64,000 bases of DNA from Candidatus Poriferisocius sp. (GTDB lineage Bacteria; Actinomycetota; Acidimicrobiia; Acidimicrobiales; Bin134): contig NZ_OZ241977.1 of assembly GCF_965204145.1 (NCBI RefSeq), positions 2,114,840 to 2,178,839 of the forward strand. The letters are read 5' to 3'. The notes under the pieces are model-generated. The model made no database searches, was not told the DNA's origin, and worked only from the letters and a program-made list of their open reading frames with translations. The position numbers and the translations under genes are program-made. Position 1 is the stretch's first letter; each line of letters starts with the position of its first letter. Shown here one piece after another: positions 17,465 to 57,800 of this stretch.

Positions 17465-17467
17465 CCG

Positions 17468-17872: not shown

Positions 17873-17880
17873 ATCGCTAG

Positions 17881-37329: not shown

Positions 37330-37545
37330 TCAGTCATCAAAATCCTCCCGGTCCAGCACCATGTCCCAGCGATCGCCGCAGTCCGAACAGCGGTAGGCCA
37401 CAGAGTCGCCGGGCTCGGGCGGATCATCCTCCGGCCAGTACGTGATCCGGTGGCACCACCCCCCACAGTCCACACACACGATCCGATCGGCAATCACCGT
37501 CTTCAGTGTGCCACCCCGGCCTGGCGACCCCATCGACTCCATCAA
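37330..37545 (-). CDS. Small zinc-ribbon protein (two CxxC pairs), coupled to the HNH gene
   Basis: CVDCGG...CSDCGD; the ATG overlaps the HNH stop (ATGA at 37542-37545). Confidence 0.45.
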   Translation of the reverse strand: MMESMGSPGRGGTLKTVIADRIVCVDCGGWCHRITYWPEDDPPEPGDSVAYRCSDCGDRWDMVLDREDFDD

Positions 37546-38459
37546 GAAGCTCTGAGAAACACCTCGAAGCGCTCGGCCAGCAAGTCTCGGTCTGGCTTGG
37601 CGGCCCGCCGCCGTGGCACGTGGAGAGGCGAGTCGTGCAAGCCTTGAATTGCGTGCCTCAAAGTCGGCCCATCCGAGTCATCCAATACATCAGGGCGAAT
37701 TTTGACTTGGTAGTCAGAGTTGATGCCGAGAAGGTGGCTGTCATATGCAGCATGGTGGATCTTGCACATTGAGATGCCGTTCGTGACTACTGGCTTACCT
37801 CCTTCAGAATCAGCCCTGATATGAGCAGCATCCAATAGCTCCGGGTATCGGAGACTGCATATTCCGCATTGCGACCCGTACGCGGTCAGTACCCGAGCCC
37901 GGAACAACGGCTGGTGCAGCCGCCTCTTCGCAACGTCCTCGGCATATTCCCGCAGCAAGGGGATGTCAGCCGCATCAGCTCCCGACCAGCGCTCTTGCTG
38001 CGCCTCATCTAATGCCACAACAAATTGGTGAAGCCCCGGCTCTTCGTCGACCAAAAAGACTGGGAAAATTGGCTTGTAGAGACCCACGGCAATTCCTACG
38101 AACCAAATCAGCGGGACTCCTTCCTCGAGAGCTACCCGCAAGGCTTGGTTGGTCCAGAGCAGAGGATCGGTTTTCTCCCACTTGTAACGCATGTATCCGT
38201 CGGCTCCGGAGTGATCGTCATAGGGGAGACTGGCCGAGTCTGCTCGATACGTCGTAGTGATAGACAAAGCAGCATCGAGGACTTTGGGCTTGTAGATGCC
38301 CCTTTGCCGATTCTTGAACAGGATCCGGCTTCCCTCGAAAGAAAACCCATCCTCAATATCACTCCACGTGACAACGCCACCGGAGGCATCGGACAGCAAG
38401 CGAAGCTTCGCGAAAGCTGCTGACCGTACACGTTCGTCCCACGCGGCATCAAAGGCCAC
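37542..38459 (-). CDS. SRA/YDG-like domain fused to HNH endonuclease (candidate type IV modification-dependent restriction enzyme)
   Basis: C-terminal HNH_2 pattern GSQCGICSLRYPELLDAAHIRADSEGG...NGISMCKIHHAAYD. The N-terminal RGIYKPKVLDAALSITTTYRADSASLPYDDHSGADGYMRYKW resembles the SRA GIxxP...ALSI...YxDD...G...Y layout. Lower GC than the flanks. GTG start. Confidence 0.7.
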   Translation of the reverse strand: MAFDAAWDERVRSAAFAKLRLLSDASGGVVTWSDIEDGFSFEGSRILFKNRQRGIYKPKVLDAALSITTTYRADSASLPYDDHSGADGYMRYKWEKTDPLLWTNQALRVALEEGVPLIWFVGIAVGLYKPIFPVFLVDEEPGLHQFVVALDEAQQERWSGADAADIPLLREYAEDVAKRRLHQPLFRARVLTAYGSQCGICSLRYPELLDAAHIRADSEGGKPVVTNGISMCKIHHAAYDSHLLGINSDYQVKIRPDVLDDSDGPTLRHAIQGLHDSPLHVPRRRAAKPDRDLLAERFEVFLRAS

Positions 38460-38500: not shown

Positions 38501-38626
38501 TCATGTTTCAGAGGCGCTCCGGAGGCTCTCCCATTCGTCGAGGAGGCTGGAGTCGGTGGTGCGGAGGTGATTGACGAATGCTTCGACCGGCGCGGTATGC
38601 ATCAGAGCGGCCATGGCAATGCCGGG
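38501..38626 (-). pseudogene. Displaced 3' fragment homologous to the DUF3516 helicase C-terminus (att-associated remnant)
   Basis: The minus-strand frame reads (stop)PGIAMAALMHTAPVEAFVNHLRTTDSSLLDEWESLRSASET(stop). The intact gene end at 47249 reads IPAAAVNDPLASLTAELHTLLRSTDSSLLDEWESLREG. Confidence 0.6.
38520..38567. repeat. Direct repeat copy A (47/48 identical to 47259-47306)
   Basis: cggaggctctcccattcgtcgaggaggctggagtcggtgg T gcggagg. 40 bp are identical, then 1 mismatch, then 7 bp identical. Confidence 0.95.
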
Positions 38627-38671
38627 CTACGAGGGGCCACCACAAATGTGAGCCAGCAGGAACAAATCACT

Positions 38672-41600
38672 ATGTTCCGCTTCGTGGCTGTGTCTGAGTA
38701 TGTGGTTTTCGACTTGGAAGCCAATGCCGACCAAGCCCATCCGCCGCAGCACGAGATTATCGAGATCGGCGCAGTTCTGATCCGCGACGGCGAGGAAACG
38801 GACCGGTTGCAGACCCTGGCTCGACCGGCGAGGCAGCTACGCCCTCAAACACAGGAAGTCACCGGGATCACCCAGGAGATGGTGAGTGATGCACCCCCTC
38901 TGGCCGAAGCCCTGCACTCCTTCCGCCGCTTCGCTGGCAACCGACCGCTGATTGCTCACAACGGGTTTGGATACGATTTCACGCTTCTTGACGCCTCGAA
39001 TCTGCCGATCCCCGACGGCCAGCGCCTCGACAGCTTAGAACTGGCCCATGTCGTTTTTCCGCGAGCCGGCAAAGGCATCAGCAGCAATGTAGATAATGGA
39101 ATACCACCCAAGGGACGAAGCCTGGACGAGCTGGCTAGGCACTTCTTCGGCGATCAGCCCCGCGGCCACCACCGGGCCTTGGACGATGCGCTGCTGCTGC
39201 ATCGAGTCCTAAAGCGGCTGCTGGATGCCATGGAAGACGATACGCCCATGCGCTGTCTTCAACGGTGGATCTTGAACGCTGGTGACCACCCGTGGGCTTC
39301 ATTCCTGTCGCCCCAATCTGCACGCACTCCCCTAGCAGACGTCGTGCCGCTTCCCGAACCCCCGCAGCCGCGACCATCAGCAACACAATTCAGGCCTGAT
39401 GCCGTTACTGAGATGTTCCAAGCAGGCGGCACGTTGATGGGTCAAGCCCGTGAGCCCCGCAAACAGCAAACCGAGATGGCTGAGCTCATTGCCCATACGC
39501 TCGATCAGGGAGGTCGCCGCCTGATCGAGGCCCCCACCGGAACGGGCAAGACCCTGGCCTACCTCACTCCCGCCATTGCATACGGACAAGCCGCCCAAAA
39601 GCCCGTGGTCGTGGCCCCCCATTCGAAGGTGCTCCAAGACCAGGTGATGACCACTTTGGAAGAACTCCAGAAAGACATCGGTCCGTTTACCCACGTCCTG
39701 CTCAAGGGAATGGCCAACTACATCAGCCTGGACTCACTCGACGGAGAATTGGACACCTTGGCCTCGGCTAACACCGCTCCCGACGAAAGGGACGGCATCT
39801 CCCCCTCTGCCCCCTTCAGCTATTCCGAGATATTGGTCCTCGCCATTCTCTGCGGCTGGGTGGCGCAAACCAGAACGGGCGACTGGGACGACCTTCGCAC
39901 CGGCGCCATTGAGAAGAGGATTCCCGAACTGCGCCGCATCCGCCGCCTACTCAGCGTGGCCGAAGCGCCGGGCGGACCGGCCGGGTCGCCGCTCGAAAAG
40001 CGGGATTTCTTTCGCCGAGCCCGCGATCTTTTGCCTCGCGCCGATGTGGCTGTGCTCAACCATGCCCTGCTGGTGACGTGGGACGACTGGCTGCACCATT
40101 CCAAGCACCTGATTCTGGATGAGGCCCACAACCTGGAAGACGCCGCCACCGACGCTCTCTCCGACGAGGTGTCTCAAGACGACATCGCTGATTTATGCAA
40201 TTCCGTCTGGGATCCTTCGAGCCGCAGTGGGATGGCGGCCAGCCTCGCCCGAGCAGCCAGGTGGCCAATCGGCGCTGAGCCTCTGAGCGCCATTTTGCGG
40301 GCAACCGAGGAGATCCAGTCGGCATCAGCCCAATTCGGCCCAGCCCTGGTTCACTACCTGAGAATCCGAACCGGGGCCGGACAAGAAGACGCATACCCGG
40401 TGTCATACCGAATCAAGCGGGGTGCCGACACCCGACACCCCGACTACGAGGGGCCGGTGCTGGGTACCGGCGGCCGCCTTCAAGACGCCTTGATCAAACT
40501 GGCCGACGCATTCAACGACGTGAACCTGCCCGATGAGTTAACGCCCGGCTATAGGCGCCACCGCTTGGAGGCCCGGATCGGCCGGTTGGGAACACAGGTT
40601 AGGGACACGGCGAGAAGCATCGGCCATGTGCTGTGGGCTACTGACAACGAAGAATGGATCGCCATCGGCGGAACCCATCACACCGAGCACGGCTGGAGAT
40701 GGGAGTTGAAACGCGCCCCTATCTCCGTGGCCGACTATCTGCGTTCGCTGTGGGACTCACTAGACACCGCCGTACTCACCTCGGCCACGCTGAGAGTGGG
40801 AAACAGCTTCGGCTACATCCTCGACACCCTGGGTTTGCGCCGCGGCGCCGAAACCAGCGCTCTCGACAGCCCCTTTGCCTGGTTGTCCGACAACCACATG
40901 GTGCTGCGAACCGACTACCTGCCCGCTCCCCGCTCAAGACTGATGGAGGAGTTCAAGACATCGGCGGCCTCGGAGATCCCCCGGCTGCTGACCCTTACCG
41001 GCGGGCGGGGGCTTGTCCTCATGGCTGCTCGGTCCCGAATGGAGTTCGTGCGGGATCATGCCCGTCCGGTGCTCGACAGCGAGCAGCTTCCGCTGCTGGC
41101 CCAAGGCGATGACACTGCACCCGCTCTGGTAGAGCGAATGCGGGCCGAGTTGGCCTCAAGCTTGATCGCGCTGCGCTCCTTCTGGGAGGGGGTCGACATT
41201 CCCGGTGAAGCCCTGAGCCTTTTGGTGATCGAAAAAGTCCCCTTCGACTCACCCGCCGATCCTGTGGTTGGGGCGCGAACAGAGCTGATGGAACGTCGCG
41301 GCAAGGATCCGTTTGCCGACTACATCGTGCCCAAAGCGGCCATTCGCTTCGCCCAAGGCGCTGGCCGCCTGATCCGCACCGAGCACGACCGTGGGGTCAC
41401 AGTGATTTTGGATAACCGACTGTGTCGAGCCGTCCCCTATCGAGACCAGATCCTCGGCACCCTCCCCGGCCCCCCTCGACTGGAGCGGGCCAACCACGCT
41501 GAAGACGCCTATCAGCTCATCGCCGACCATCTCGGAGATGTGGTTTTCGATGAGGCGATGCGCCAGCGGCTCCAGGCACTGCCCAGTGCCGACCCGTGGT

Positions 41601-43696
41601 CAGAGTTGGACGACCTGGAACTCTCCGAGGCTGACCTCGCCGACGAGGATGTGATCGACCAGCGCCTCGAACAAGTTCGAGAGCGCTTCGGGTTCGCGCA
41701 GTGGCGGCCTGGCCAGCGAGACACCATGCTCCGCTTTATGCGGGGCGACGATGTGCTGGCGGTGCTTCCCACCGGGTCGGGCAAGTCGGTCACCTTTCAA
41801 ATCCCGGCCCTGCTATCTCCTGGCGTGACCCTGGTGATCTCCCCCTTGGTCGCGCTGATGAACGACCAAGCCGAGAACCTCCGGGCCAGGGGCGTGGTCA
41901 AGGTAGCCGCCATTCACAGCGGCATCCCCCAAGGGGAGTGGCGAGAAATACTGCGAGGGGCCGGTCAGGGCCACTACAAGCTGCTCTATGTCAGCCCCGA
42001 GCGGCTCTGGTCCCAAGAGTTCGTGGCCGAGCTGTCCAAAATCGGGGTGGCCCGGATCGCGGTCGATGAAGCCCACTGCATTTCCCAATGGGGCCATTCC
42101 TTCCGACCGGAGTATGCCGCCATCCCCGAGGCCATCAAGCGGATCGCCGAGCATCCCCGACCTCCGATCTTGGCCGTCACCGCCACCGCCACTCCAAGGG
42201 TGCAAGAGGAGATCGCCGATCTTCTCGAATTAGACCTGCAAGGCAAACCCATTGTCCTTTCGCCTGATCGACCGGAGATCCGCTACTACACCGAGCACTG
42301 CGACAATGGCCGCGACCGCGACCTGCGGGTAGTTCAGATCGTGGAGGCGTTCCGCCTCCAACCCGCAATCGTCTATGTGCCCACCCGTAGACAGGCCGCT
42401 GCCATCACCAATCTGCTCCGTTCAGCTGGCCACAACGCCTTCGCCTACCACGGAGGCATGGATCACCCGCAGCGACAGCACATCGAGGACGCTTTCCGCC
42501 ACGGCGAGATCGACGTTGTGGTAGCCACCAAAGCATTCGGCATGGGGATCGACAAGCCCGACATCTCCCTGATCGTCCACCTGGAGATGCCCGCCTCCAT
42601 CGAGGAATACGTGCAGGAAACCGGTCGGGCGGCTCGGGGCGCCGCTACAGGAACGGGACCGGACACCGGCACCGCGGTCCTGTTGACCATGCCACGGGAT
42701 TGCTCAGTCCACCGGATATTCATCAAAAGCTCGGCACCCCGCATCGAGCAAGTGAAGCGGATCTGGTCGCAACTGACGATGGGCACCCACGCCTACGACC
42801 CGGAGGAACTGGCCGAAAGGGGCTATGACGGCGACCCTGAGTCGGTCAGCACTGCTCTGGCTGTCCACTATCTCCAAGAAGCTGGCGCGGTCCAACGGCA
42901 CCCAGACACCATCTGGAAAGGTCGGATCGCAGTTGTGGGAGACACCGAGCGCCTGGTCGAAGAGCTGGAAAGAGAGGATCTGGAATTGGCTCAGCGGGCT
43001 CGGCGCATCCTGGCTCTGGTCGAACAGCAGGAGGGCGATGAGTACTACGCACCAACCTGGGCTCAGAATCTGACCCAAAAGCCCTGGGACATTGCTGCCG
43101 ACCTTTTGGAGCTGAACAAACGGGACATCTTGGGCTTCACCGCCTGGAAATACGCTTGGGTGTTGGAGTTGCTCGACACCGATCCCCCGTGGGCGGATAT
43201 CGAGCGGTCAGCCGAAGACCGCAGGCGCTTGACAGAAGAAAAGTCCAACGATGCGAAGGACCTGGCCCATTCCTCCAACGGATGCCGGCGAAAGAAGATG
43301 CTCGAGTATTTGGGGACAGAGGCACCCGAGTCCTGCGAACAGTGCGATCTATGCGTTGAACTTCCCAGGCCATGGGCCGATAGCCACCTGACTCGAGAGG
43401 GCCTCCTCGAATCACTGCCGGTCAACGCCATCATCACAGAGCTGGTACAAAGCACCGCCGGAGCGCGCTACTCGCGCCAGCGCATCGTCAACACTCTGGC
43501 CGGACAGAGCGGCGGCCAATACGAACTCCCCGAGCGCTTGGCTAAACATCCTGCCTTTGGGAGGTTGGCCTTCCTCAACCGAGAAGGAGTCGAGAAGGCC
43601 GTCAACAAGCTGATTGAAGACAAGATCCTCAACAAGCGGCAGGGAAAATTGGAAGGAACCCGATACCAGTATCTGGAGATCGCCGAACAAGACTGA
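38672..43696 (+). CDS. Triple-fusion protein: DnaQ-like DEDDh 3'-5' exonuclease + DinG/Rad3-type SF2 helicase (no Fe-S Cys cluster) + RecQ-family helicase with Zn-binding/RQC region
   Basis: Exonuclease: VVFDLEAN, IAHNGFGYDFTLL, HHRALDDA. DinG: IEAPTGTGKTLAYL, LILDEAHNLED (40118), VLTSATL, FWEGVDIPGEAL, QGAGRLIR. RecQ: FGFAQWRPGQRD, LPTGSGKS, DEAHCISQWGHSFRPEY (42064), VTATAT, ATKAFGMGIDKPD, QETGRAARG, CRRKKMLEYLG...CEQCDLC. Start set to ATG 38672 (MFRFVAVSEYVVFDLEA). Confidence 0.85.
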   Translation: MFRFVAVSEYVVFDLEANADQAHPPQHEIIEIGAVLIRDGEETDRLQTLARPARQLRPQTQEVTGITQEMVSDAPPLAEALHSFRRFAGNRPLIAHNGFGYDFTLLDASNLPIPDGQRLDSLELAHVVFPRAGKGISSNVDNGIPPKGRSLDELARHFFGDQPRGHHRALDDALLLHRVLKRLLDAMEDDTPMRCLQRWILNAGDHPWASFLSPQSARTPLADVVPLPEPPQPRPSATQFRPDAVTEMFQAGGTLMGQAREPRKQQTEMAELIAHTLDQGGRRLIEAPTGTGKTLAYLTPAIAYGQAAQKPVVVAPHSKVLQDQVMTTLEELQKDIGPFTHVLLKGMANYISLDSLDGELDTLASANTAPDERDGISPSAPFSYSEILVLAILCGWVAQTRTGDWDDLRTGAIEKRIPELRRIRRLLSVAEAPGGPAGSPLEKRDFFRRARDLLPRADVAVLNHALLVTWDDWLHHSKHLILDEAHNLEDAATDALSDEVSQDDIADLCNSVWDPSSRSGMAASLARAARWPIGAEPLSAILRATEEIQSASAQFGPALVHYLRIRTGAGQEDAYPVSYRIKRGADTRHPDYEGPVLGTGGRLQDALIKLADAFNDVNLPDELTPGYRRHRLEARIGRLGTQVRDTARSIGHVLWATDNEEWIAIGGTHHTEHGWRWELKRAPISVADYLRSLWDSLDTAVLTSATLRVGNSFGYILDTLGLRRGAETSALDSPFAWLSDNHMVLRTDYLPAPRSRLMEEFKTSAASEIPRLLTLTGGRGLVLMAARSRMEFVRDHARPVLDSEQLPLLAQGDDTAPALVERMRAELASSLIALRSFWEGVDIPGEALSLLVIEKVPFDSPADPVVGARTELMERRGKDPFADYIVPKAAIRFAQGAGRLIRTEHDRGVTVILDNRLCRAVPYRDQILGTLPGPPRLERANHAEDAYQLIADHLGDVVFDEAMRQRLQALPSADPWSELDDLELSEADLADEDVIDQRLEQVRERFGFAQWRPGQRDTMLRFMRGDDVLAVLPTGSGKSVTFQIPALLSPGVTLVISPLVALMNDQAENLRARGVVKVAAIHSGIPQGEWREILRGAGQGHYKLLYVSPERLWSQEFVAELSKIGVARIAVDEAHCISQWGHSFRPEYAAIPEAIKRIAEHPRPPILAVTATATPRVQEEIADLLELDLQGKPIVLSPDRPEIRYYTEHCDNGRDRDLRVVQIVEAFRLQPAIVYVPTRRQAAAITNLLRSAGHNAFAYHGGMDHPQRQHIEDAFRHGEIDVVVATKAFGMGIDKPDISLIVHLEMPASIEEYVQETGRAARGAATGTGPDTGTAVLLTMPRDCSVHRIFIKSSAPRIEQVKRIWSQLTMGTHAYDPEELAERGYDGDPESVSTALAVHYLQEAGAVQRHPDTIWKGRIAVVGDTERLVEELEREDLELAQRARRILALVEQQEGDEYYAPTWAQNLTQKPWDIAADLLELNKRDILGFTAWKYAWVLELLDTDPPWADIERSAEDRRRLTEEKSNDAKDLAHSSNGCRRKKMLEYLGTEAPESCEQCDLCVELPRPWADSHLTREGLLESLPVNAIITELVQSTAGARYSRQRIVNTLAGQSGGQYELPERLAKHPAFGRLAFLNREGVEKAVNKLIEDKILNKRQGKLEGTRYQYLEIAEQD

Positions 43697-43725
43697 AATT
43701 TGCTTGAAGTGTAGGTTGGCACGCT

Positions 43726-45501
43726 GTGGCCAGCCTGATTCCCGAGAATATTCCCAGCCGAAACGACATACCCGAAAGGCTCAAGACCGCCGCCCGCCTG
43801 CTGCGCGACGCGACACCCCACGATGTGGTGGTATCACTTGAGCGTACTGGCGACGACACCGCCTCAGCGCAGCGGCGCGATCTTGGGTACGAAGCTTCTG
43901 ACACCAGCAGCGAGTCAGTCCCCTATTTGGTCGTGTTCGACCCGGCCGCGGGCATATTGGTGCTGGAATCCCCCACGCTCCGACCTCTTGGCGCCAACAA
44001 GCGGAGCCGCTTTCGCCGCCAGCCGCGCGTTGACCTCGACCAGGCTCAACAGGCCATCATCGCCAGGGTCATCGGATTGCAACACAGGATCAGGTCGCTG
44101 TTCGTCGCTCGGGCGCTGGCATTGCCTGATGTTCGCCGCGACCAGCCCCTGTCTTTGGCCGACGACAATGTGCCCCGGCTTCATTCAGAAGATTTCCATG
44201 AAGACACCCTGCTGGCAGCCATCCGGCAGATACTCGGCGGGCAACGGCCTCCGCTCAACAACCAGGGCCAAGCACGGGTACGAGCCGAGATCAATCCCAA
44301 GATCGTGATCGGTCGGCAGGGTCAGATGTTCGACACCGGTCCCCAGACATCTGAAGAGATGATTCGGGTTTTGGATCTGACCCAAGAGCGCCTAGCAGAG
44401 CACCTCGGACCCGGCTACCGCCTCATCCGAGGAGTGGCCGGAAGCGGCAAGACCCTGGTCCTCACCCACCGAGCCCGCTATATCGGCGAGAACATGCCCC
44501 GCTGGCGCATCCTACTGGTGTGTTACAACATCGCTCTCGCACAGGCCCTCGAAGCAGAGCTTGAAAATGTGGAGAACGTGACGGTGTCCACCGTCGATTC
44601 CCTGGCCAGCAGGGTCATCCGCCAAGCTGGACGCACGCCTGCACAAGGCCGCGACGATGATGCGTTCCAAGCCCGGCGCAAACAAGCGATCGCCGCGGCC
44701 AGCATCCTCCCACCGGCTAAGAGGTATGACATGGTGCTTGTGGATGAGGCCCAAGATCTGGGCAATTCTGGACTCGACCTCTCGTGGGCCATGGGCAGAC
44801 ACGAACTCGCGGTGGAGCTGCGGCACTTCATCATCGCCTTGGACAGCGCGCAGAACGTCTACCGACGCAAGATGAACTGGAATCCACCGGGTGTGACCGC
44901 CCGGGGCCGGTCGACCATTCTCCGAGAGAACTACCGCAACACGAAGGAAACGCTCGACTTTGCGTTGGGAGCGATTGCGGGAATCGGCCAGCCCAGCGCG
45001 AACCAGGCATCTCCAGATGATCTAGACACCTTGGTCATGCCCGAGGCCGCACTGCGCCATGGTAAGCCCCCGGTTCTTTTGGAGTGCCCCGATTTGAGAA
45101 CCGAGGCTGAGACGCTGACAGAGAAAACAGCCGAATTTCTCCGCAACGGGGCCACACCTGACGACATCGTCATCATGTCGGGGTCGAAAGAGTTGCGGAT
45201 CACCTTGCAGCGAACACTGAGAGCAGAGCGAATTCCAGCACTCGACGCACAGCAGGAGCGGGACCAAGTGGTGTCGATGCGCGGCAGCGTACGGGTGGCC
45301 ACCCTCCAGCTACTGAAGGGACTCGAATACCCTCATGTTCTCATCGGCGGTGTCAACGACATTTGGACAAGAAACGACGACGATGACGAGACCCGTCAAC
45401 GACTTCTTTACGTTGCCATGACCAGGGCGACCGAAACGCTGACCGTCACCTATTCCGGCGATGGCCCGATGGGTCGTTTGCTCCAGGCGGCCCGCCGCTG
45501 A
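43726..45501 (+). CDS. UvrD/Rep-like SF1 helicase with degenerate N-terminal NERD/PD-(D/E)xK-like head
   Basis: GVAGSGKTLVL (Walker A), MVLVDEAQDL (Walker B), ENYRNTKE, LKGLEYPHVLIGG, LLYVAMTRATETL. The N-terminus MASLIPENIPS...PYLVVFDPAAGILVLESP resembles the nuclease head of this class, but the E-x-K lysine is replaced (ESP). GTG start 30 nt after the fusion gene. Confidence 0.8.
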   Translation: MASLIPENIPSRNDIPERLKTAARLLRDATPHDVVVSLERTGDDTASAQRRDLGYEASDTSSESVPYLVVFDPAAGILVLESPTLRPLGANKRSRFRRQPRVDLDQAQQAIIARVIGLQHRIRSLFVARALALPDVRRDQPLSLADDNVPRLHSEDFHEDTLLAAIRQILGGQRPPLNNQGQARVRAEINPKIVIGRQGQMFDTGPQTSEEMIRVLDLTQERLAEHLGPGYRLIRGVAGSGKTLVLTHRARYIGENMPRWRILLVCYNIALAQALEAELENVENVTVSTVDSLASRVIRQAGRTPAQGRDDDAFQARRKQAIAAASILPPAKRYDMVLVDEAQDLGNSGLDLSWAMGRHELAVELRHFIIALDSAQNVYRRKMNWNPPGVTARGRSTILRENYRNTKETLDFALGAIAGIGQPSANQASPDDLDTLVMPEAALRHGKPPVLLECPDLRTEAETLTEKTAEFLRNGATPDDIVIMSGSKELRITLQRTLRAERIPALDAQQERDQVVSMRGSVRVATLQLLKGLEYPHVLIGGVNDIWTRNDDDDETRQRLLYVAMTRATETLTVTYSGDGPMGRLLQAARR

Positions 45502-45511
45502 AGAGCGCAAG

Positions 45512-46435
45512 ATGAAGTTCGGGGTGTATTTCTCGTTTCGGAGGCTGCCGGGGGATTCGAAGCCGTGGGCGGAGGTGTATGACGAGAGCTTCGCCCAGAT
45601 GCGGTTGGCGGAGGATCTGGGCTTCGACTCGGTGTGGCTGACCGAGCACCATTTCAGCGACGATGGCTACTCCCCGTCGGTGCTGCCCATCGCCGCGGCG
45701 GCGGCCGCCCACACGTCGGTCATCGACATCGGCGTTTTTATTGCCCTGTTGCCGCTGTACAACCCAGTGAGGCTGGCTGAGGACGCGGCCACTGTGGACG
45801 TCATCTCCCGAGGGCGGCTCATTCTGGGGCTGTCCGCGGGGTATGTGACCTCCGAGTTCGCTGCTTTGGATGTGGACTTCGACAGGCGGTCAGAAATCGC
45901 CGACGAAGCGCTGGAGATCCTCTACGGGTGCTGGAGCGGCGACCACTACTCCTTCATCGGGGAACACTTCTCCGTGTCGGACGTGTCGGTGTATCCCAAG
46001 CCCCACACCCGGCCCCATCCCCGCATCTTCTACGGCGGCGGCTCCCCCGCTGGCCGCCGTCGCCATCGGTTCGTGGTGGAGACCATGAACTGGTCCCGGG
46101 AGCCTGAACTGCTGTGGCTCTACATCAGTGACGATGCCGATGCCGCTTGGGAGGAGTGGGGTGCGGGAGCGACCCATGTCCACACCCGCTACATGCGATG
46201 GACCAAGGAATCCGGAGGCGACTGGTGGGACGCCGATCCCCGCGCCCACTTCATCGCCGGCGATGTGAACACCGCCATCAAGGCCATCGAGAACAAGCTC
46301 GGCGGCTTCCGCACCGAGCGGGAGGGCGAGGCCGAGACACTGGTGCTGGGGATGAACATGCCCGGAGTCGACGACAGCAACATCCGCCGTTCGATGGAGT
46401 TGTTCGCGGCCCACGTCATGCCTCGGTTCCAATGA
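45512..46435 (+). CDS. LLM-class flavin-dependent oxidoreductase
   Basis: MKFGVYFSF..., AEDLGFDSVWLTEHHFSDDGYSPS, LYNPVRLAEDAATVDVISRGRLILGLSAGY. Confidence 0.8.
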   Translation: MKFGVYFSFRRLPGDSKPWAEVYDESFAQMRLAEDLGFDSVWLTEHHFSDDGYSPSVLPIAAAAAAHTSVIDIGVFIALLPLYNPVRLAEDAATVDVISRGRLILGLSAGYVTSEFAALDVDFDRRSEIADEALEILYGCWSGDHYSFIGEHFSVSDVSVYPKPHTRPHPRIFYGGGSPAGRRRHRFVVETMNWSREPELLWLYISDDADAAWEEWGAGATHVHTRYMRWTKESGGDWWDADPRAHFIAGDVNTAIKAIENKLGGFRTEREGEAETLVLGMNMPGVDDSNIRRSMELFAAHVMPRFQ

Positions 46436-46481
46436 AGCCGGGCGTGGATTGATGGAGGATACTTGACCATGGTTGTCGTCT

Positions 46482-46787
46482 ATGGTTGGAATCGTTAGCC
46501 TGGTAGCTGTGACACCAAACAACGTTGCCCGGGTTGTTCCTGCAGGAGAGTTCAAAACCAAGTGCCTCCAACTCATGGATGAAGTGGATCAGACAGGTGA
46601 GTCGATTCTCATCACCAAGCGAGGCAGGCCCGTGTCGATTTTGATGCCGGTCACATCGGAAGCTCCCGGCATCTGCGGCCGTTACAAAGACAGGGTGCGG
46701 ATACCCGAAGAGGGCCTTCCCAAAGCATTCACCGCCACAGAGTGGGCCGACATCATAGACAGCGCCGGGGCAGACGACACCGAATGA
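46482..46787 (+). CDS. Phd/YefM-type antitoxin
   Basis: VVPAGEFKTKCLQLMDEVDQTGESILITKRGRPVSILMP; paralogous to the antitoxin at 5637-5978. GTG 46509 is an alternative start. Confidence 0.7.
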   Translation: MVGIVSLVAVTPNNVARVVPAGEFKTKCLQLMDEVDQTGESILITKRGRPVSILMPVTSEAPGICGRYKDRVRIPEEGLPKAFTATEWADIIDSAGADDTE

Positions 46788-47200
46788 TTCTCGACACCAA
46801 TGTCCTGCTGTGGAGCGTTGTTGGCGACACGTCCAAAATCAGCCTTGAAGTGCAAGCGGAGATCGATGCTCGGGTCTCCGTCGGCAATGCCGCAGTTTCG
46901 GCGATCACGTTCTGGGAGATGAGACATGCGCGTCGCAAGAACAACCCGGCGGTCAAGCTGCCTCCGATTGCCGGGCTTCGACAGGATCTTCTGCGCAGCG
47001 GACTGCGTGAGATTCCGCTCACGGGCGATGTCCTCATCGACGGCATCGAACTCGCTGACAGCGGCTTCCACGACGATCCGATGGACCAGATGATCGTGGC
47101 CACTGCACTGAGCGAGAATCTTCCGCTCGCCACCGCCGACCGCCGAATACAAGCGTGGGCCAATCAAACTGGCCGCTTGGAGATCGTGCCGCTGCGGTAG
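46784..47200 (+). CDS. vapC: PIN-domain toxin (VapC family)
   Basis: MILDTNVLLW..., AITFWEM, MIVATALSENLPLATAD. ATGA overlap with the antitoxin stop. Confidence 0.85.
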   Translation: MILDTNVLLWSVVGDTSKISLEVQAEIDARVSVGNAAVSAITFWEMRHARRKNNPAVKLPPIAGLRQDLLRSGLREIPLTGDVLIDGIELADSGFHDDPMDQMIVATALSENLPLATADRRIQAWANQTGRLEIVPLR

Positions 47201-47248
47201 CCGCGTGCTATCGGTAGGTGACCCGCCCTCCGGTAACCGGGCGGCGAG

Positions 47249-49353
47249 TCACCCCTCGCGGAGGCTCTCCCATTCGTCGAGGAGGCTGGAGTCGGTGGAG
47301 CGGAGGAGGGTGTGGAGCTCGGCGGTGAGACTGGCCAGGGGGTCGTTGACGGCGGCGGCGGGGATGGTTTGGACCAGGGCCTTGTAGCAATCGGACAGGT
47401 AGCGCAATAGCGCTCCTTCGGAGCGCTTGATGCCGTAGCGGGAGACGTACTGGTTGAAGGTGTCTCCGACCTCCATGAGGTCGCGGGCCACCGATTTGGG
47501 CTGGGGCGATCGTGGCCCACCCAGGGGTGGTCGCGGGCAAACACCGCGAAGGCCGGGTCGATGAACTCGGCTTCGGGGCGGGGCCAGGTGACCTCCGACA
47601 GCCGCTCCAAGCGCTCCTCGTAGGGCACCCTCTCGGCCTTGAGCTGGACCATGAGGTCGTCGCGGGCCTTGTCGCGTTGGGCCAGCAGCACCACCGTGGG
47701 GTCTTCCAGCACCGACTCCACCACGCTGAGCGCCTGCCAGTGGTAGTCGGGCGCCTCGATGTCCAACGCTTCCAGTGCCTCCACCGCGAACAGCCCCAGC
47801 GGCTGGTTCAGCCGGAACTCGTCTTGGAGGTCGAGGTTCACCCGCACGGGACGGCCCAAGTCGTCGGGCTCGTCGAGCACTTCGACGATTTCAGCGTCGA
47901 TCAGCGATCGGAACACCCCCACCGCTCGGCGGATGTGGGCCCGCTGGCGGGAGCGGGGCTCGTGGTTGTCAACCAGCAGGCGCTTCATGGCCGCGCAGCC
48001 GTCGCCGGGCCGGTCCAAGACGTTGAGCATCATGGAGTGGCTCACCGCGAAGCTCGACTCCAGGGTCTCGGGGCGACCCTGCCATAACCGGGCCAGCGTG
48101 TCGCCGTCGTAGTGGGCGTAGTTGTGCTCGGGCGGCTTCTTCTTGACCAGCTTGCGCCGCTTGACCGGGTCGGACGCGGCTTTGGCCTCGGCCCGGCGGT
48201 TCTCCACCACGTGCTCAGGGGCCTGCACCCACACGCTGCCCTCCTCGTCGAAGCCCTTGCGGCCGGCCCGGCCCGCTATCTGCTGGAAGTCCCGCACCGA
48301 CAGCACCCGGGTGCGGCGGCCGTCGTACTTGTACAGGCGGGTGAACAGCACGGTGCGGATGGGCACGTTCACCCCCACCCCCAGCGTGTCGGTACCGCAG
48401 ATCAGCTTGAGATGGCCCTCTTGCGCCAGCTTCTCCACCAGCAGCCGGTATTTGGGCAACAACCCCGCGTGGTGTACCCCCACCCCGGCCAGCACGAAGC
48501 GGCGAAGGTCCTTGCCGAACGGGGTGTCGAAACGGAAGCCGCCAATTGCCTCTTTGACCGCAGCCTTGGCTCCGGCATCCAGCACGTCGAGGCTGGTCAG
48601 GCTCTGAGCCTGGGCGGTGGCCTCCCGCTGGGTGAAGTGAACGATGTACACCGGCGCCTTGTCGGCCCTCAGCAACTCGGCAATGGACACGTGCAGCGGC
48701 GTCTCCCGATACTCCACGTCGAGGGGCACCGGCCGCTGGGCCGAGGCCACCAGTGCGGTGGGCCGCCCGCTGCGCTGGCTCAGGTCCCGGCGCAGGGCGG
48801 TGGTATCGCCCAGGGTGGCCGACATCAGCAGGAACTGGGGTTGGCTCAGCTCCAGCAGCGGCACCTGCCAGGCCCAGCCCCGGTCCCGGTCGCCGTAGTA
48901 GTGGAATTCGTCCATCACCACCAGGTCAGCGTCGGCCTCGCTGCCGGAGTGCAGAGCCCGCAGGGCCAGGATCTCGGCGGTGCAGGCGATCACCGGGGCG
49001 TTGGCATTGACGGCAGCGTCCCCGGTGACCATCCCCACCTGCTCGGCCCCGAACGCGGCCACCAGCTCGAAGAACTTCTCGCTGACCAGCGCCTTGATCG
49101 GCGCGGTGTACACCGCCCGCCGTCCCTGGGCCAGCGCGGCGAACGCCCCGGCCAGCGCCACCAGCGACTTGCCCGAGCCGGTGGGGGTGGCCAACACCAC
49201 GTTGTCGCCCCCCAGCAGCCGCAGCACCGCTTCCTCCTGATGGGGGTACAGCTCCAAACCCGCCGCCTCGGCCCAATCGCAGAACGCCCCCAACAGCTCA
49301 TCGGGATCGCCCACATCGGGCATGAACTCGGCGAGAGCAGGCGGCACGGCCAT
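47249..49353 (-). pseudogene. DEAD/DEAH-box helicase with C-terminal DUF3516-like domain, interrupted by a -1 frame change near 47494-47500
   Basis: LATPTGSGKS, VMDEFHY, MSATL, GVHHAGLLP, QIAGRAGRKG. After ...HPWVGHDRPSPN the 0 frame becomes Pro/Ser/Thr-rich nonsense, while the -1 frame (track ORF 47249-47491) continues sensibly: SVARDLMEVGDTFNQYVSRYGIKRSEGALLRYLSDCYKAL...DSSLLDEWESLREG. Confidence 0.8.
47259..47306. repeat. Direct repeat copy B (47/48 identical to 38520-38567), inside the helicase 3' coding end
   Basis: cggaggctctcccattcgtcgaggaggctggagtcggtgg A gcggagg. Confidence 0.95.
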
Positions 49354-49399
49354 AGCGAGAGTGAGGCTAGAGGCAGATCGGGCGTGGGAGGCTACGGGA

Positions 49400-50293
49400 A
49401 TGAAGTTCGGGCTCTATCTCATCGGCAGCGCAACCGGAGTGACGGGACCACCGGCGGCGCCGATCGCCGATCCTGAGTTCTTGGTCGGCTTTGCCCGCCA
49501 CGCCGAGGCGGTGGGATGCGATTCGCTGTTCTTCGCCGACCACATCGTGTTCCCCGCGGCCAAGGAGGCGCCCTATCCCTACGCCGAATCGGGGGCCTAT
49601 CCGTGGGACAACGAGCACACCCAACTGCCCGAGCCGCTGGCATTGATGGCATTCCTGGCCGGGGTCACCGAGTCGCTTCGATTCGGCACCGCGGTGCTGG
49701 TCCTGCCCCAGCGCCACCCGATGCTGCTGGCCAAGCAGCTCGCCACCATCGACGTGCTAGCAGGAGGGCGGGCCGAACTCGGAATCGGCGCGGGGTGGTT
49801 GGCCGACGAGTTCCACGCGCTGGGCTATTCGTTCGACGATCGAGGCGCCCGCACCGACGAGTACATCGACGTCATGCGAGAGCTATGGGCCAGCCCGGTG
49901 GCCAGCTTCGCCGGGCCGACCGTCGCCTTCGACCGCGTCCAGCTCACCACGCACCCCCGCCAGCCCGATGGCATCCCCATCATCGTGGGGGGCCACTCCC
50001 CGCCCGCACTGCGCCGAGCCGGCCAGCGGGGCGACGCCTTTCTGCCCGCCTTCTCGGCGTCGCAGAACCGGGACCGCTGGCCCGAAATGTGGAACGAGGT
50101 CCAGCGCTGGGCAGCCGAGGCGGGACGGGCCGAAGCCTGTGAGCTCCAGGGATTCGGCGCCACCCTCGACGACGCCCGATTCCTGGCCGACTTGGGGGCA
50201 ACCCGCATGATCTACAGCACCCACGACCCCGATTTGGCCTCGGCTCGGGACACCCTGAATCGCTTCGCCGACGAGGTAATCACCCGATTTTGA
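49400..50293 (+). CDS. LLM-class F420-dependent oxidoreductase
   Basis: MKFGLYL..., FADHIVFP, RFGTAVLVLPQRHPMLLAKQLATIDVLAGGRAELGIGAGW, DDRGARTDEYIDVMRELW. Confidence 0.85.
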   Translation: MKFGLYLIGSATGVTGPPAAPIADPEFLVGFARHAEAVGCDSLFFADHIVFPAAKEAPYPYAESGAYPWDNEHTQLPEPLALMAFLAGVTESLRFGTAVLVLPQRHPMLLAKQLATIDVLAGGRAELGIGAGWLADEFHALGYSFDDRGARTDEYIDVMRELWASPVASFAGPTVAFDRVQLTTHPRQPDGIPIIVGGHSPPALRRAGQRGDAFLPAFSASQNRDRWPEMWNEVQRWAAEAGRAEACELQGFGATLDDARFLADLGATRMIYSTHDPDLASARDTLNRFADEVITRF

Positions 50294-54298: not shown

Positions 54299-54721
54299 AT
54301 GCCGCCACAAGTAGTGGTTGACACCATGGTCGCCAGTGCCTGGCTCGCCAACCGCCAGGTAGAGCGCCAGGTTCGTTGGTTGAGGGTTCTGGCGCAGGCC
54401 CTATGGATACTCCCCTTCGTGGTCGTCGCCGAGATGCGCTTCGGGGCCGAGGTGGCCGGTTGGGGCCTTCGACGCAGAGCGAGGCTGGAGAACGTGATAG
54501 CGCGTGCCGCAGTAGTGCCTCCGCTTGAAGACATCACCGATGCGTATGTCGATCTACGAGCCTGGAGCGTTCGCAGCGGACACGGTCTGAGCGCCAAGAG
54601 CCACGAAGCCGACCGGTGGGTCGCCGCTGTCGCTATTGCCGGAGAACTCCCGCTCGCCACTGAGGACTCGATCTTCGACGACGTTCCTATGCTACGGCTC
54701 CTCGATCCAGATGGGGCCTAG
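54299..54721 (+). CDS. vapC: PIN-domain toxin (VapC family)
   Basis: VVVDTMVASAW..., FVVVAEMRFG, HEADRWVAAVAIAGELPLATED. Confidence 0.8.
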   Translation: MPPQVVVDTMVASAWLANRQVERQVRWLRVLAQALWILPFVVVAEMRFGAEVAGWGLRRRARLENVIARAAVVPPLEDITDAYVDLRAWSVRSGHGLSAKSHEADRWVAAVAIAGELPLATEDSIFDDVPMLRLLDPDGA

Positions 54722-54849
54722 ACGTTCTGCCCGCAGAGATTGCTAGCTCGACTGGGTAGGTCGGCTGTGGGGTGCGCATTGTCATTGTTTGAAGTGGCCA
54801 TGTTGGCCTGTAGCATGGCTCGCAGCCGTTGCGTACTGCGCGACACCAG

Positions 54850-57800
54850 ATGAACAAAACACAAATCAGGCTATTCCTCGGCCAGGAGATCGAGGATCCC
54901 GTAGAGCAAAAACTCATCAGCCGCTTGCGCCTTGATTTAGAGCAGCGCGGTGTTAGCGGTGCCTTGTACGCGAACTTCATCCCGCGACCCGGACAGCAGC
55001 GCCAGATCGACCTGCTCGTCCACACTGAAACCCACACAGCGCATGTAGAGATCAAGGGTTTCAATGCCAACTACCCGGTGCGCGGCCATGTGAACGGTCT
55101 TTGGGTTCAGATCCTTGCTGACGGGACAGAGCGGCAGATTACAAACGGCAGCTCGCAGGCCATTCGTGGCACCTACGCGATCAGCGACGCCATGCGAGAC
55201 CTTGCCAGGAAAGAGGGCGTCGCTGCGGTAGATAACAATTTTTCCAGTTATATCGACACGATCGTTGGATTGTGGGAAGCCATCCCCGAAGGATCAGAAA
55301 TTGAGCCACGAGCCCATGTGACCGTACTGGGTTACCAAGACCTCCTCGAGCGGCTAGTCAAACCCGGGCCATGTGTGCCGTGGACGCAAGAAGAGTGGGA
55401 TGAATTCGCCCGCCGCCACAGCCTCTTCCAGCCCGAAGACATCTCGCCTTCCGAGCAGAGCAGGCGCGACAGCCTCGAAATCATCGCTGATTACCGTCCA
55501 AGGGCCCGAGCCAGTCTCTCAGACGGTCTCGGGCCTCTGGTCGATCTGGGCGCAACTGACAACGATGGCACTGAATTGGCGGCAGACGACATCGACAACA
55601 TGGTCGCCGCTGGCAGAGTGGTCGCGATAACAGGCCACTCGGGAAGCGGCAAGACCTTTTTCGCTCGACATTTGGTTGTGAGACACTGCGATGCTGGTCG
55701 CTTGGTGGTCTGGGTTCGGGCCGCTGACTACGAGGGTCGATTCAGCGACTTGCTCAACTTGGCCACAGCTCCGTACAGCATCGAGCGGCGAAAAGACGTC
55801 ATTCGAGCCGCCGAAGAAACTGGAGTGGGCATATCTGTAGTGCTCGATGGTCTGAACGAGTGCCCGGAGAGCGAACGGACCGAACTACTGAAGCAATTGA
55901 AGGCGTTTTGCTTGCGACACTCCGCGGGAGTGCTGGTTACAAGCACTGTTGAGGAAGGTCTGGTCGGCACGCTAGGCGCGAAAATCTTGAACTCCAACGA
56001 GCCCGATGCAGAGACCAGGCTGGCGATCCTCCGCTCTTATGGCGCCCGACAGCCAGAGCGCATAAGCGACCAGTTCCGCTCGCCGCACGAACTGGCAATC
56101 GCCGCGGAGTGCGAAAGCGAGTTGGCCAATGGCGCATCGGTCGCAGACCTGCACGACGCCTTCGTCCGCCGACATGCCCCCACCGTACGAGTCCGAGCCG
56201 GCCTACGCTCCCTCGCCGCCAATCTTCACTCCCAATTCAGAACCAGCATGCCGCAACTCGATGCTGCGTCAGTCCTTAACTCGCCAAGCCTTGAATCTGA
56301 TGCCCGATTCGTCGACGAGGTCTTAGCCAATCCACTCATAGGGATTGACCGCCACCGTGTCCGTTTCCGCCACGAGCTATTCGGCCAATTCCTCGCCGCC
56401 GAGGATCTCGTCCGCTCCTCCAGCACCAGCCAACGCCTCGCTGCTCATCTCGACCTTCCGGTCAACAAGCCGCTCACTCAGACTGCCCTTCAAATCGAGC
56501 GAAACAGCCACCGGATCTGGGACGTGATCAAGGCGCTCTGCGATGAGTGGCTAATGCTCAGGGCACTCACAGGCGATTACGGCCCCGAAGTTGCCGCTCT
56601 CGCCGCTGCGGACATCCGAGACATTCTCCATGTCGGCATCGCCGCAGCCAACCCAGAGAACGCCTCCTTCGAGGCCTTCAAATCCGAAGATCAGGAGGGC
56701 TTTGCCTTAGGCGGGCGTTGGTCGACAAGCCGCCGGTGGTCAGAGACCGAACTGAAGCTGCTGGCCGCCGCAGGCAGGGGCTCGTACCGAGGCCTGCTCG
56801 TCGAAGAAGTCTGCGAGCTGATCGACAAGACCGATGAGCTGTGCCAGACCCAGGCGCGGCTCCTGCAAGCCGACGGCATAACCAACCCCATCTCGACGGT
56901 CGTAGAAGCGACGCTCAGCCAAATGGCGCACCAAGTAGACCGGGAGAATTGCGGGCTCGCTATGCCCTACGTCGCCGTCGCGTTCGAGTATGCCGCAATG
57001 GAAGCCCCGTTCAGTGGCCTTCGGGGCAGCACCGGGCTAGCAGGACGCTTGGCCAACGGCGCAGGCGACTACTCGTGGGGCCGCTACTACCTGGCGATGC
57101 TTGCAGTCAACCCATTCGATCCCACCGACCAAGCTGTCTTCGCCTCCCTGCTGCGTCGGGCTTGGGACGCCGGCGGATCCCCCTTGCAACTTAAAGCCCT
57201 ACACACAGCCACAGACTTAGGGCGTCACGGCGGAACCCAAGACCCGCACCGCTCCGAAATCGTCGACGTACTGCGCTCGATCGATACGAGCAATCTGATT
57301 CTGAGTACCTCGCTCCTCGAAGCACTCGCCGAATTCGACGAGATTGAAAGCGAAACCACAGTCGAGCAAGTTCACGACCGTATCCGACAAACCATCTCGC
57401 GCCCCGAAGATATGGAGAGCTGCCGTGCGGCCCGGAGCATCGTGGCCATGCAATACGAAACCCAGGAAGTCGTCGGCCCCTACCGCGAAGCAATCGGAGA
57501 ACTCACTGATACAGATTGGGCATGGCTTCTTACCATGGCCGCGCGTGGCTCCGATCCCAACTCATGGGACATCGATTCCCTGTTGGAGCAACTGTCGAAC
57601 CTCGTCCCCACTGGGAACGCCGCTCTCGATAACGCTGCCAAAGATGTGTTCGCGTCGTACCTAGACGGCCCGCCCGAAGACTCCACTATGCCGCAGGTGG
57701 CGTCAGCCGCATGTCGGGCTGCCATAAGCGGGTGGGCCCAATTCGAGTCTGAGATTCCACCAGGGCCAAATGACCCGACCCCAGCGCAAAGAAGCTGGCA

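Follow-up and report, generated by a model that had tools for sequence, protein, structure and literature searches.

Here, we describe a two-gene cassette carried by a 64,000-nucleotide (nt) stretch of Candidatus Poriferisocius sp. DNA (contig NZ_OZ241977.1, positions 2,114,840 to 2,178,839); this full stretch is called the window, and coordinates follow its numbering. The first gene is predicted to encode a working three-enzyme protein, in which a DEDDh exonuclease, a DinG motor lacking the Fe-S cluster, and a RecQ helicase with its zinc module are fused in one chain. The second encodes a predicted superfamily 1 (SF1) helicase. Our favored reading, to which we give a probability of about 50%, is that the cassette is an accessory helicase-nuclease defense effector that unwinds and degrades foreign DNA. 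The finding is real, but it is less novel than the original prediction, made from this DNA alone, had held: the fusion architecture was on record by 2005 and occurs widely. New features appear to be the strict pairing with an SF1 helicase in Acidimicrobiia, the lineage-specific sets of partner genes, the in-operon link to restriction-modification (R-M) genes in Chloroflexota, and the evidence for relocation of the cassette.

Three catalytic modules in one open reading frame

By open reading frame (ORF) analysis, the plus strand is free of internal stop codons from 38567 to 43696. The start that fits the homologs is the ATG at 38672, preceded by AGGAA, which gives a product of 1674 amino acids (aa); DNA similarity to the contig of a related locus, L006, starts nearby at 38665. 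The original prediction of a single uninterrupted ORF with three catalytic modules (38672 to 43696, plus strand) held, and hidden Markov model searches with Pfam, PADLOC, and NCBIfam confirmed the domain borders (Table 1). The exonuclease motifs that it quoted are present (D14 and E16 within FDLE, D102 within HNGFGYD, and H167 and D172 within HHRALDD), as is the RecQ zinc-binding Cys cluster.

In the DinG module, Pfam matched ResIII at aa 261 to 334 and Helicase_C_2 at aa 771 to 930 (5.3e-33), and the motor motifs are Walker A K293, DEAH 483 to 486 (from nt 40118), and motif VI Q895, G898, and R899. The Escherichia coli DinG structure 6fwr matches aa 262 to 935 of the fusion, and the Staphylococcus aureus DinG (SaDinG) structure 8zef matches aa 701 to 920. 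Exactly one Cys (C394) lies in the Fe-S region between Walker A (aa 287) and DEAH (aa 483), as had been predicted.

The RecQ module gave Pfam matches to DEAD (aa 1013 to 1179; 1.2e-39), Helicase_C (aa 1229 to 1322), and RecQ_Zn_bind (aa 1513 to 1561), with Walker A K1038, DEAH 1132 to 1135 (from nt 42065), and motif VI Q1315, G1318, and R1319. Of the two DEAH positions predicted, the first (40118) was exact and the second (42064) was one nucleotide short. PADLOC and NCBIfam matches to DpdF, PsyrT, and recQ_fam run from aa 994 to ∼1400, in agreement with the Pfam borders. The solved structures closest in sequence to the RecQ core are RecQ structures (4tmu, 8e-79; 1oyw, 4e-77), and the top fold matches of the structural model of this part (pLDDT 85.5) are likewise RecQ cores. 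A Pfam scan gave no match to the ∼140-aa insert between the RecQ motor and the zinc module. The C terminus (aa 1572 to 1674) gave a weak RQC signal (PF09382; E = 0.0012; 19.1 bits, under the cutoff of 23), and HRDC is absent from the Pfam matches of the protein. A promoter and terminator scan of 38.3 to 47.4 kb found nothing exceeding shuffled expectation.

Conservation, distribution, and prior record of the fusion

A search of 5.8 billion proteins returned 449 at E <= 1e-50. The best 120 homologs are nearly all 1630 to 1870 aa long, carry the same Pfam set, and are 49 to 96% identical over 99 to 100% of the query; close homologs with names come from Ca. Poriferisocius, Ca. Poriferisodalis, and other Acidimicrobiia. 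In a full-length alignment of 119 sequences, the catalytic motifs of all three modules are at least 95% conserved (exonuclease and DinG: FDLE, AHNG..D, HRAL.D, EAPTGTGKT, DEAH..ED, TSAT, and QG.GRLIR; RecQ: LPTGSGKS, DEAHCISQWGH, QETGR..RG, and the Cys cluster). Scanning with aa 1 to 1200 by HMMER added dozens of 50%-identity clusters (1650 to 2050 aa; 30 to 37% identical) that align to residues 6 to 1190 in a single stretch. These come from Deinococcus, Ktedonobacteria (Tengunoibacter tsumagoiensis and Ktedonobacter sp. SOSP1-52), Chloroflexia, and Pyrinomonadaceae. A tblastn search of plasmids found megaplasmid copies in Thermus, Allomeiothermus, and Deinococcus with the same architecture by Pfam. 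At 26 to 37% identity, relatives are thus spread over Chloroflexota, Acidobacteriota, and Deinococcota; the family, which spans at least four bacterial phyla, falls into hundreds of clusters at 90% identity, and databases hold hundreds of copies labeled "RecQ family ATP-dependent DNA helicase."

Across a 22-sequence alignment spanning 26 to 82% identity and four phyla (Actinomycetota, Chloroflexota, Acidobacteriota, and Deinococcota), the exonuclease residues D14, E16, D102, H167, and D172, the motor residues K293, D483, E484, K1038, D1132, and E1133, both motif VI arginines, and the four zinc Cys are invariant. Because these catalytic residues are unchanged across four phyla, the alignments argue for long-term selection on all three activities, with each catalytic center evidently kept by purifying selection. 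Cys residues of the Fe-S region are retained in many distant members and lost in the Acidimicrobiia clade, the window protein included.

Omelchenko et al. (BMC Evol Biol 5:57, 2005) recorded the DnaQ-DinG-RecQ architecture in plasmid pTT27 of Thermus thermophilus HB27, and strain HB8 lacks the gene (PMC1274311). The architecture was therefore already known, and known to be strain variable. The literature yielded nothing beyond that record on a DinG-RecQ or ExoDinG-plus-RecQ fusion, and such a fusion is unmentioned in a 2025 review of DinG-like proteins (PMC11981726) and in the RqlH paper (PMC3378886). The original prediction had known of no described function for the three modules on one polypeptide; no paper that we found gives one either, but the architecture itself had been described.

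Two features of distant members were also observed. The Chloroflexota-clade homologs P0416 and P0477 (2291 and 1902 aa) match LAGLIDADG_3 (PF14528), which suggests that some distant fusion proteins contain inteins. P0139 to P0166 and their relatives are extended at the N terminus by ∼90 residues that terminate in "...GRWxLR" and resemble a small winged-helix domain. A HARE-HTH or NERD identity was considered for this extension and for the N-terminal domain of the partner helicase, and neither had Pfam support even at E <= 1. A phage or virus origin of the fusion was dismissed, as neither the phage records nor the best 80 IMG/VR hits included one with two or more of its modules.

The fusion is paired with an SF1 helicase gene in Acidimicrobiia

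The partner gene begins 29 nt past the fusion stop codon and contains the conserved motifs GSGKT, DEAQD, NYRNT, and TRA.E.L (Walker A K242; DEAQ 340 to 343). In the structural model, its motor fold resembles UvrD, Rep, and the Schlafen helicase domain. The N-terminal domain is modeled (pLDDT 72) as an alpha-beta-beta-beta-alpha-beta fold typical of PD-(D/E)xK nucleases, with E39, D72, and E81 conserved. Sequence and model together indicate an SF1 UvrD-like helicase with a probably degenerate, nuclease-like N-terminal domain.

The original prediction had proposed that homologs be checked for co-occurrence with this gene, and the association was complete: the partner lies directly 3' of the fusion in 18 of the 18 Acidimicrobiia loci examined. 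In all seven loci read via the fusion (82, 60, 51, 49, 56, 96, and 90% identity), a partner ortholog on the same strand follows immediately. Conversely, searching from the partner side with one genome per GTDB species, each of 10 loci whose partner is at least 39% identical has the fusion just upstream (10/10), and partner relatives at 33% identity or less have no triple fusion upstream. The fusion and the SF1 helicase gene therefore form a two-gene cassette in Acidimicrobiia. One copy of the partner gene, at L004 15095 to 16841, is frameshifted and apparently decayed.

Gene context in other phyla

The strongest pointer to function is the gene context in other phyla. Two Ktedonobacteria carry hsdR-hsdM-hsdS, a 67- to 73-aa ORF, the fusion, and a ∼510-aa protein on one strand with short or overlapping junctions; further downstream lie genes for nSTAND-WD40, KAP NTPase, CHAT-TPR, or SLFN/AlbA proteins. 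In a Pyrinomonadaceae genome, an SNF2 helicase gene and a gene for a 1223-aa type IIG/DrmMI-like methylase precede the fusion, and a 497-aa homolog of the ∼510-aa protein follows it. The order in Ktedonobacter sp. SOSP1-52 is SNF2, small ORF, fusion, and a 529-aa protein. Thermales have three conserved genes for proteins of unknown function (∼250, 180, and 500 aa) after the fusion, and in their vicinity are Cmr genes (HB27), BrxL with a UvrD-like gene (T. oshimai), or Cas1/Cas2 with a WYL gene (A. silvanus). On a Deinococcus actinosclerus plasmid, a UvrD gene precedes the fusion and a gene for an 886-aa unknown follows. The plasmids carrying the fusion are typed as non-mobilizable.

We also looked for a common partner across clades and rejected the idea: by BLAST and profile-profile comparison, the ∼500-aa proteins of Chloroflexota and of Thermales and the SF1 partner of Acidimicrobiia are mutually unrelated. 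None of the clade-specific partner sets matched a PADLOC model.

Comparison with known enzymes and systems

The nearest described counterpart is the Thermus HB27 protein "REC_DNA" (WP_011174436.1, pTT27), which has the same modules in the same order (RNase_T, DinG with Helicase_C_2, RecQ DEAD and Helicase_C, and RecQ_Zn_bind), aligns over its full length with all catalytic residues in common, and is encoded by a strain-variable gene. By module order and by full-length homology that includes the catalytic residues, the window protein belongs to this DnaQ-DinG-RecQ family. However, the two are only ∼27% identical, and Thermales copies lack the ∼590-aa SF1 helicase downstream.

ExoDinG of S. aureus and Bacillus subtilis shares with the fusion an N-terminal DEDDh exonuclease and a DinG motor without a full Fe-S cluster. 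SaDinG is a 5'-3' helicase and 3'-5' exonuclease, and both activities are needed for cross-link repair in S. aureus (PMC12345164). ExoDinG ends after the DinG motor at ∼900 aa, whereas the window fusion adds a RecQ module of ∼730 aa; moreover, ExoDinG is a core gene in Bacillales, and the fusion here lies in an accessory cassette. The fusion scored below the NCBIfam ExoDinG equivalog thresholds (PRK08074, 389.4 versus 789; TIGR01407, 329.2 versus 547.7; PRK07246, 180.4 versus 794).

The RecQ part has the canonical helicase core and four-Cys zinc module, and RecQ structures rank top by both sequence and fold, but it falls short of the canonical RecQ equivalog (TIGR01389, 393.1 versus 640.2), and HRDC is missing. 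With RqlH and PsyrT it has in common a RecQ motor, an extra linker, a tetracysteine zinc module, and the lack of HRDC (PMC3378886). The ∼140-aa stretch between the motor (to ∼aa 1370) and the zinc module (aa 1513 to 1568) recalls the RqlH "linker," and RqlH, like RecQ, is a 3'-5' repair helicase (PMC3378886). The PADLOC PsyrT model matches at 7e-97, although only over model positions 8 to 407 of 689. Unlike RqlH and PsyrT, the RecQ part forms the last third of a longer polypeptide, has no ComF/phosphoribosyltransferase-like C-terminal domain, and is followed by an SF1 helicase gene rather than an RqlI/PsyrA-type partner. Human WRN similarly combines an exonuclease and a RecQ motor on one chain, and WRN helicase structures match aa 998 to 1324 (∼3e-47); however, WRN, a eukaryotic protein, lacks a DinG motor between its modules, and the bacterial fusion arose independently.

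RecBCD, AddAB, and AdnAB would resemble the cassette on the proposed principle of opposite-polarity motors plus nucleases acting at DNA ends, with an SF1 UvrD-like subunit here as well. RecBCD also destroys phage DNA. Sequence kinship to these complexes is limited to the SF1 core of the partner: the opposed motors of the cassette are of superfamily 2 (SF2) and lie on one chain with a DEDDh nuclease, whereas the nuclease of RecBCD-type enzymes is RecB type, and the cassette has no known Chi-recognition element.

Known PADLOC systems (type IV CRISPR, Dpd, PsyrTA, Gabija, DISARM, and Hma) were considered and rejected, since the matches are at the level of modules and the system partners are absent. 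For type IV-A CasDinG, the PADLOC typeIV_DinG match is strong (3.7e-105), but TIGR03117 scored 71.6 against 400, and csf or cas genes and a CRISPR array are missing. Dpd DpdF matched at 1.7e-123 on the generic RecQ motor only (NF041063, 224.8 versus 550), with no dpdA-C or dpdD-K neighbors. The partner helicase gave partial GajB matches (best, 4.1e-15 over ∼90 aa), but no GajA-like gene is present for Gabija. The best PADLOC match of the partner, to the "NERD+UvrD" CRISPR-associated family C3a187 (4.4e-52), is likewise without the defining partner genes.

The cassette is relocatable in Acidimicrobiia

The composition, divergence, and position of the cassette were compared among related loci. 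GC content at third codon positions (GC3) is 0.72 in the fusion and 0.70 in the partner, versus 0.83 to 0.87 in flanking genes. Relative to locus L086, the cassette is 94.1% identical in nucleotide sequence and the flanks are 86.8 to 90.0% identical; relative to L006, the cassette is 76.7% identical, versus 88% for the flanking helicase gene and 83% for the hydrolase gene. The cassette lies at the 5' side of the DUF3516 helicase gene in L006 (L006 2783 to 11038), where the 3' side of that gene is unoccupied, and at its 3' side in the window, L086, and L087 (window 38520 to 49353). We could derive no single-event path from the L006 gene order to that of the window. Flanks are unrelated between most loci and syntenic within the Poriferisodalis group (L003, L008, L010, and L011), between L007 and L009, and partly between L004 and L014. 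Compared with its neighbors, the cassette has changed position, and its divergence from related contigs does not follow that of the flanks. The evidence on core versus accessory status is mixed and leans toward accessory.

Direct repeats flank the cassette at two other loci, whose contexts are unrelated. In L002, repeats of 557 nt (87%) and 77 nt (96%) at 9315 to 9943 and 17292 to 18470 cover RHH-PIN copies, and in L010, 35-nt repeats (97%) lie at 4933 to 4967 and 12573 to 12607. The L010 fusion (5415 to 9942) is split into ORFs of 782 and 771 aa, misses the C-terminal half of DinG, and is apparently decayed.

To compare neighborhoods in Acidimicrobiia, genes at most 3 kb from the cassette were set against genes 5 to 10 kb away; the loci are partly redundant and not independent. 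PIN was the commonest nearby family (8/123 proximal versus 3/86 distal genes), and EcoRV, HipA, WYL, and AAA_14/DUF4143 occurred among proximal genes only. The direction fits a defense setting, weakly. The context of defense against mobile elements that had been predicted is thus found chiefly in other phyla, beside R-M, CRISPR, BREX, and STAND-NTPase genes, and only faintly in Acidimicrobiia. Separately, in a relative whose fusion is 56% identical (L005), genes upstream of the cassette (618 to 7286, minus strand) encode DUF4007, a 1328-aa protein, and PAPS_reduct and resemble SspBCD-type phosphorothioate-modification genes; this set is separated from the cassette by a CcdA/PemK pair and an AAA_14/DUF4143 gene.

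Possible functions of the cassette

If the cassette is a defense effector, foreign DNA might be degraded once restriction enzymes or other sensors have left it with ends or nicks. By analogy with characterized relatives, the DinG-type motor would move 5'-3' and the RecQ-type motor 3'-5'. Because of these opposite polarities, the two motors of the fusion could run on opposite strands in the same overall direction at an end or fork. Such an arrangement, likened to that of RecB and RecD in RecBCD, could give fast, processive unwinding while the N-terminal exonuclease digests the 3'-ended strand. UvrD-type SF1A motors move 3'-5', and the SF1 partner may serve as loader, sensor, or processor of the second strand. 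A wider version, which we hold more tentatively, is that the fusion is the shared effector of a multi-phylum defense family, aimed by lineage-specific partners as a second stage after restriction. The candidate partners, proposed with equal reserve, would be the SF1 helicase in Acidimicrobiia; in Chloroflexota and Acidobacteriota, the small ORF and ∼500-aa protein that lie downstream of type I R-M or SNF2/methylase genes; and, in Thermales, the three unknowns.

Several results weigh against a defensive role. The excess of defense and toxin-antitoxin (TA) genes near the cassette is weak in Acidimicrobiia, in whose genomes TA genes are everywhere, and in the Ca. Poriferisodalis group the position of the cassette is syntenic and stable, the pattern of a gene pair inherited vertically with the chromosome. 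PADLOC 2.0 matched the fusion module by module only (DpdF, typeIV_DinG, and PsyrT) and not as a component of a known system. The nuclease-like domain of the partner lacks the canonical lysine and any Pfam match. The closest characterized relatives, ExoDinG and RecQ, are repair enzymes, and the literature searched contains no experiment on any family member. Finally, some distant members carry inteins, which are found more typically in housekeeping genes for replication and repair.

The same relatives keep DNA repair a live, though less probable, alternative, because S. aureus uses ExoDinG in cross-link repair (PMC12345164). The cassette would then be an accessory repair machine, an ExoDinG extended by a RecQ motor, which together with the SF1 helicase processes stalled forks, R-loops, cross-links, or double-strand ends of the host chromosome or megaplasmid. 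In S. aureus, repair requires both the nuclease and the helicase of ExoDinG (PMC12345164), RqlH and RecQ are repair helicases (PMC3378886), and strict conservation of three active sites, a stable locus in the Poriferisodalis group, and inteins in some members all suit a repair enzyme. The family is also plentiful in Deinococcota, and repair genes are considered to be enriched on Thermus megaplasmids (PMC1274311, PMC5529391). In contrast, a repair role fits poorly with the patchy, strain-variable distribution (HB27 versus HB8; PMC1274311) and with partner genes that are lineage specific and mutually unrelated. Nor does it readily account for the tight, same-strand packing of the fusion gene with type I R-M genes in Ktedonobacteria or for the variable flanks, relocation, and atypical GC3 of the cassette in Acidimicrobiia.

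It is improbable that the cassette serves a mobile element, as part or remnant of an integrative element or plasmid whose replication, maintenance, or resistance to host defenses it would aid. The direct repeats of a host gene 3' end that bound it in the window are as in integrative elements, repeats recur in L002 and L010, many copies are on megaplasmids, and TA genes lie within the segment. Nevertheless, the segment and its near flanks have no integrase, relaxase, replication, or conjugation gene; the L087 unit has only two genes; neither phage records nor the best IMG/VR hits contain the fusion; and the host plasmids are typed as non-mobilizable.

Still less probable is an RNA-directed role, in which RNA or RNA:DNA hybrids would be the substrates of the exonuclease and helicases, for instance to clear R-loops or to control rRNA quality. 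Listeria ExoDinG is reported to remove unprocessed rRNA (PMC12774634) and B. subtilis DinG to act as an exo(ribo)nuclease (PMC12525004), but RecQ zinc and winged-helix modules and a UvrD-type partner typically handle DNA, the operon links are to DNA-modification systems, and no result of this analysis points to RNA. An artifact that joined separate exonuclease-DinG and RecQ genes, which the original prediction had named as grounds for refutation, has no direct support beyond an uncultured source and breaks in related metagenome-assembled genomes (the split L010 fusion and the L004 partner frameshift), and it is rejected because the same continuous architecture recurs in >100 independent assemblies, including closed chromosomes, plasmids, and isolates (Thermus, Deinococcus, Tengunoibacter, and Ktedonobacter).

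If the cassette is defensive, it would be a new type of effector beside Cas3, DISARM, Druantia, Hachiman, and Gabija, one that combines a proofreading-type exonuclease with a pair of opposed SF2 motors in a single polypeptide, and it would offer a concrete case of an R-M operon with a dedicated downstream module for DNA destruction. If it instead acts in repair, it would parallel, in bacteria, the WRN-like exonuclease-helicase fusions, with an XPD-family motor in addition, and might replace RecBCD or AddAB in lineages such as the sponge-associated Acidimicrobiia. Cultivable carriers include T. thermophilus HB27, which is readily manipulated genetically, Deinococcus species, and T. tsumagoiensis.

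The repeat-bounded segment and neighboring genes

In the window, a 48-nt direct repeat (47/48 identical) occurs at 38520 to 38567 and 47259 to 47306 (Table 1), and the right copy encodes the final residues of the DUF3516 helicase (...SSLLDEWESLREG). The repeats are arranged alike in L086 and L087, where the left copy has diverged further, and in L087 the segment between the repeats consists of the fusion and partner only. The original prediction had described a repeat-bounded island with a second helicase, TA genes, and an HNH enzyme; the repeats, helicase, and TA genes are as described, but the HNH gene lies outside the repeats, and no integrase was found within 38.5 to 47.3 kb by Pfam or gene annotation of the segment. 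Relaxase, replication, and conjugation genes were likewise not found in the segment or near flanks, and there is no tRNA in the window. A search of metagenome contigs with the repeat core, for an empty site or more copies of the island, returned three short, unrelated contigs whose similarity is limited to the conserved helicase C terminus. The end repeats duplicate the 3' end of a target gene, as expected of an integrative island, but an integrase of its own and a demonstrable empty site are missing. "Repeat-bounded" is thus correct as a description.

TABLE 1 Features of the cassette and its surroundings in the window
Feature	Position (nt)	Strand	Evidence or remark
HNH endonuclease gene, just beyond the left repeat	37542..38459	-	PF13391 3.8e-08; PADLOC HNH 2.1e-18
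Left repeat copy	38520..38567		Orphan; repeats the final codons of the DUF3516 helicase gene; diverged copy at the same position in L086 and L087
DEDDh exonuclease/DinG helicase/RecQ helicase fusion gene	38672..43696	+	Uninterrupted ORF; Pfam, PADLOC, and NCBIfam matches; >100 full-length homologs
Predicted DEDDh 3'-5' exonuclease domain, aa 11-177	38702..39202	+	RNase_T 2.9e-20; catalytic D14, E16, D102, H167, D172
DinG/XPD-type SF2 helicase module, aa 261-945	39452..41506	+	PADLOC typeIV_DinG 3.7e-105; 6fwr match
RecQ helicase core, aa 994-1370	41651..42781	+	TIGR00614 recQ_fam 319.3 bits versus cutoff 219.8
Family-specific helical/winged-helix-like insert, ∼140 aa, RecQ motor to zinc module	42782..43207	+	Secondary structure of the model
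RecQ zinc-binding module	43208..43375	+	PF16124 2.2e-07; C1538, C1555, C1558, C1561
C-terminal winged-helix domain, weakly RQC-like	43385..43693	+	Model topology helix-helix-helix-strand-strand
Partner gene, 591 aa, compact UvrD/SLFN-type SF1 helicase	43726..45501	+	Pfam UvrD-helicase, UvrD_C; PADLOC C3a187 "NERD+UvrD" 4.4e-52
Luciferase-like monooxygenase gene	45461..46435	+	Bac_luciferase 2.2e-45; likelier start ATG 45512
Phd/YefM antitoxin (46473-46787) and PIN toxin (46742-47200)	46473..47200	+	In L086, absent from L087
DEAD/DUF3516 helicase gene, 3' end the source of the repeat	47249..49353	-	Reading frame breaks near 47500
Right repeat copy	47259..47306		Within the true 3' end of the DUF3516 helicase gene

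Within the segment, the luciferase-like gene at 45461 to 46435 is absent from L086 and L087. A second luciferase-like gene at 49322 to 50293 has a similar start (ATGAAGTTCGGG...), and because only this one has a counterpart in L086 and L087, the gene inside the segment is an extra copy inserted between the partner and the TA pair. The slot upstream of the cassette varies, holding the HNH gene in the window and an EcoRV-like endonuclease with a C5 methylase in L086 and L087 and being empty in L006. The HNH product scored 63.9 bits against NCBIfam PT-DNA_restrict, under the cutoff of 180. At the edge of this slot is a conserved 71-aa zinc-ribbon ORF of the form CxxC...CxxC (37330 to 37545, minus strand), on the other side of which L006 has three unknown ORFs.

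The DUF3516 helicase region (47164 to 49353, minus strand) is itself interrupted: its long ORF ends in low-complexity sequence, and the conserved C terminus lies in a separate ORF at 47249 to 47491. Since the L086 and L087 orthologs are intact (691 and 701 aa), the frameshift near 47500 could be a sequencing error or the mark of a recent pseudogene. No tandem (CRISPR) array was found in the window, nor were cas families found among the flanking genes.

Farther downstream, a gene at 54829 to 58233 (plus strand) encodes an 1134-aa protein with weak NERD and STAND-NTPase (nSTAND3/NACHT) matches that resembles antiviral STAND proteins. A PIN gene (54299 to 54721) lies just upstream of it and an IS1595-family transposase gene (61337 to 62488) downstream, and the region around it includes a low-GC stretch at 58 to 62 kb (GC, 0.48 to 0.53).

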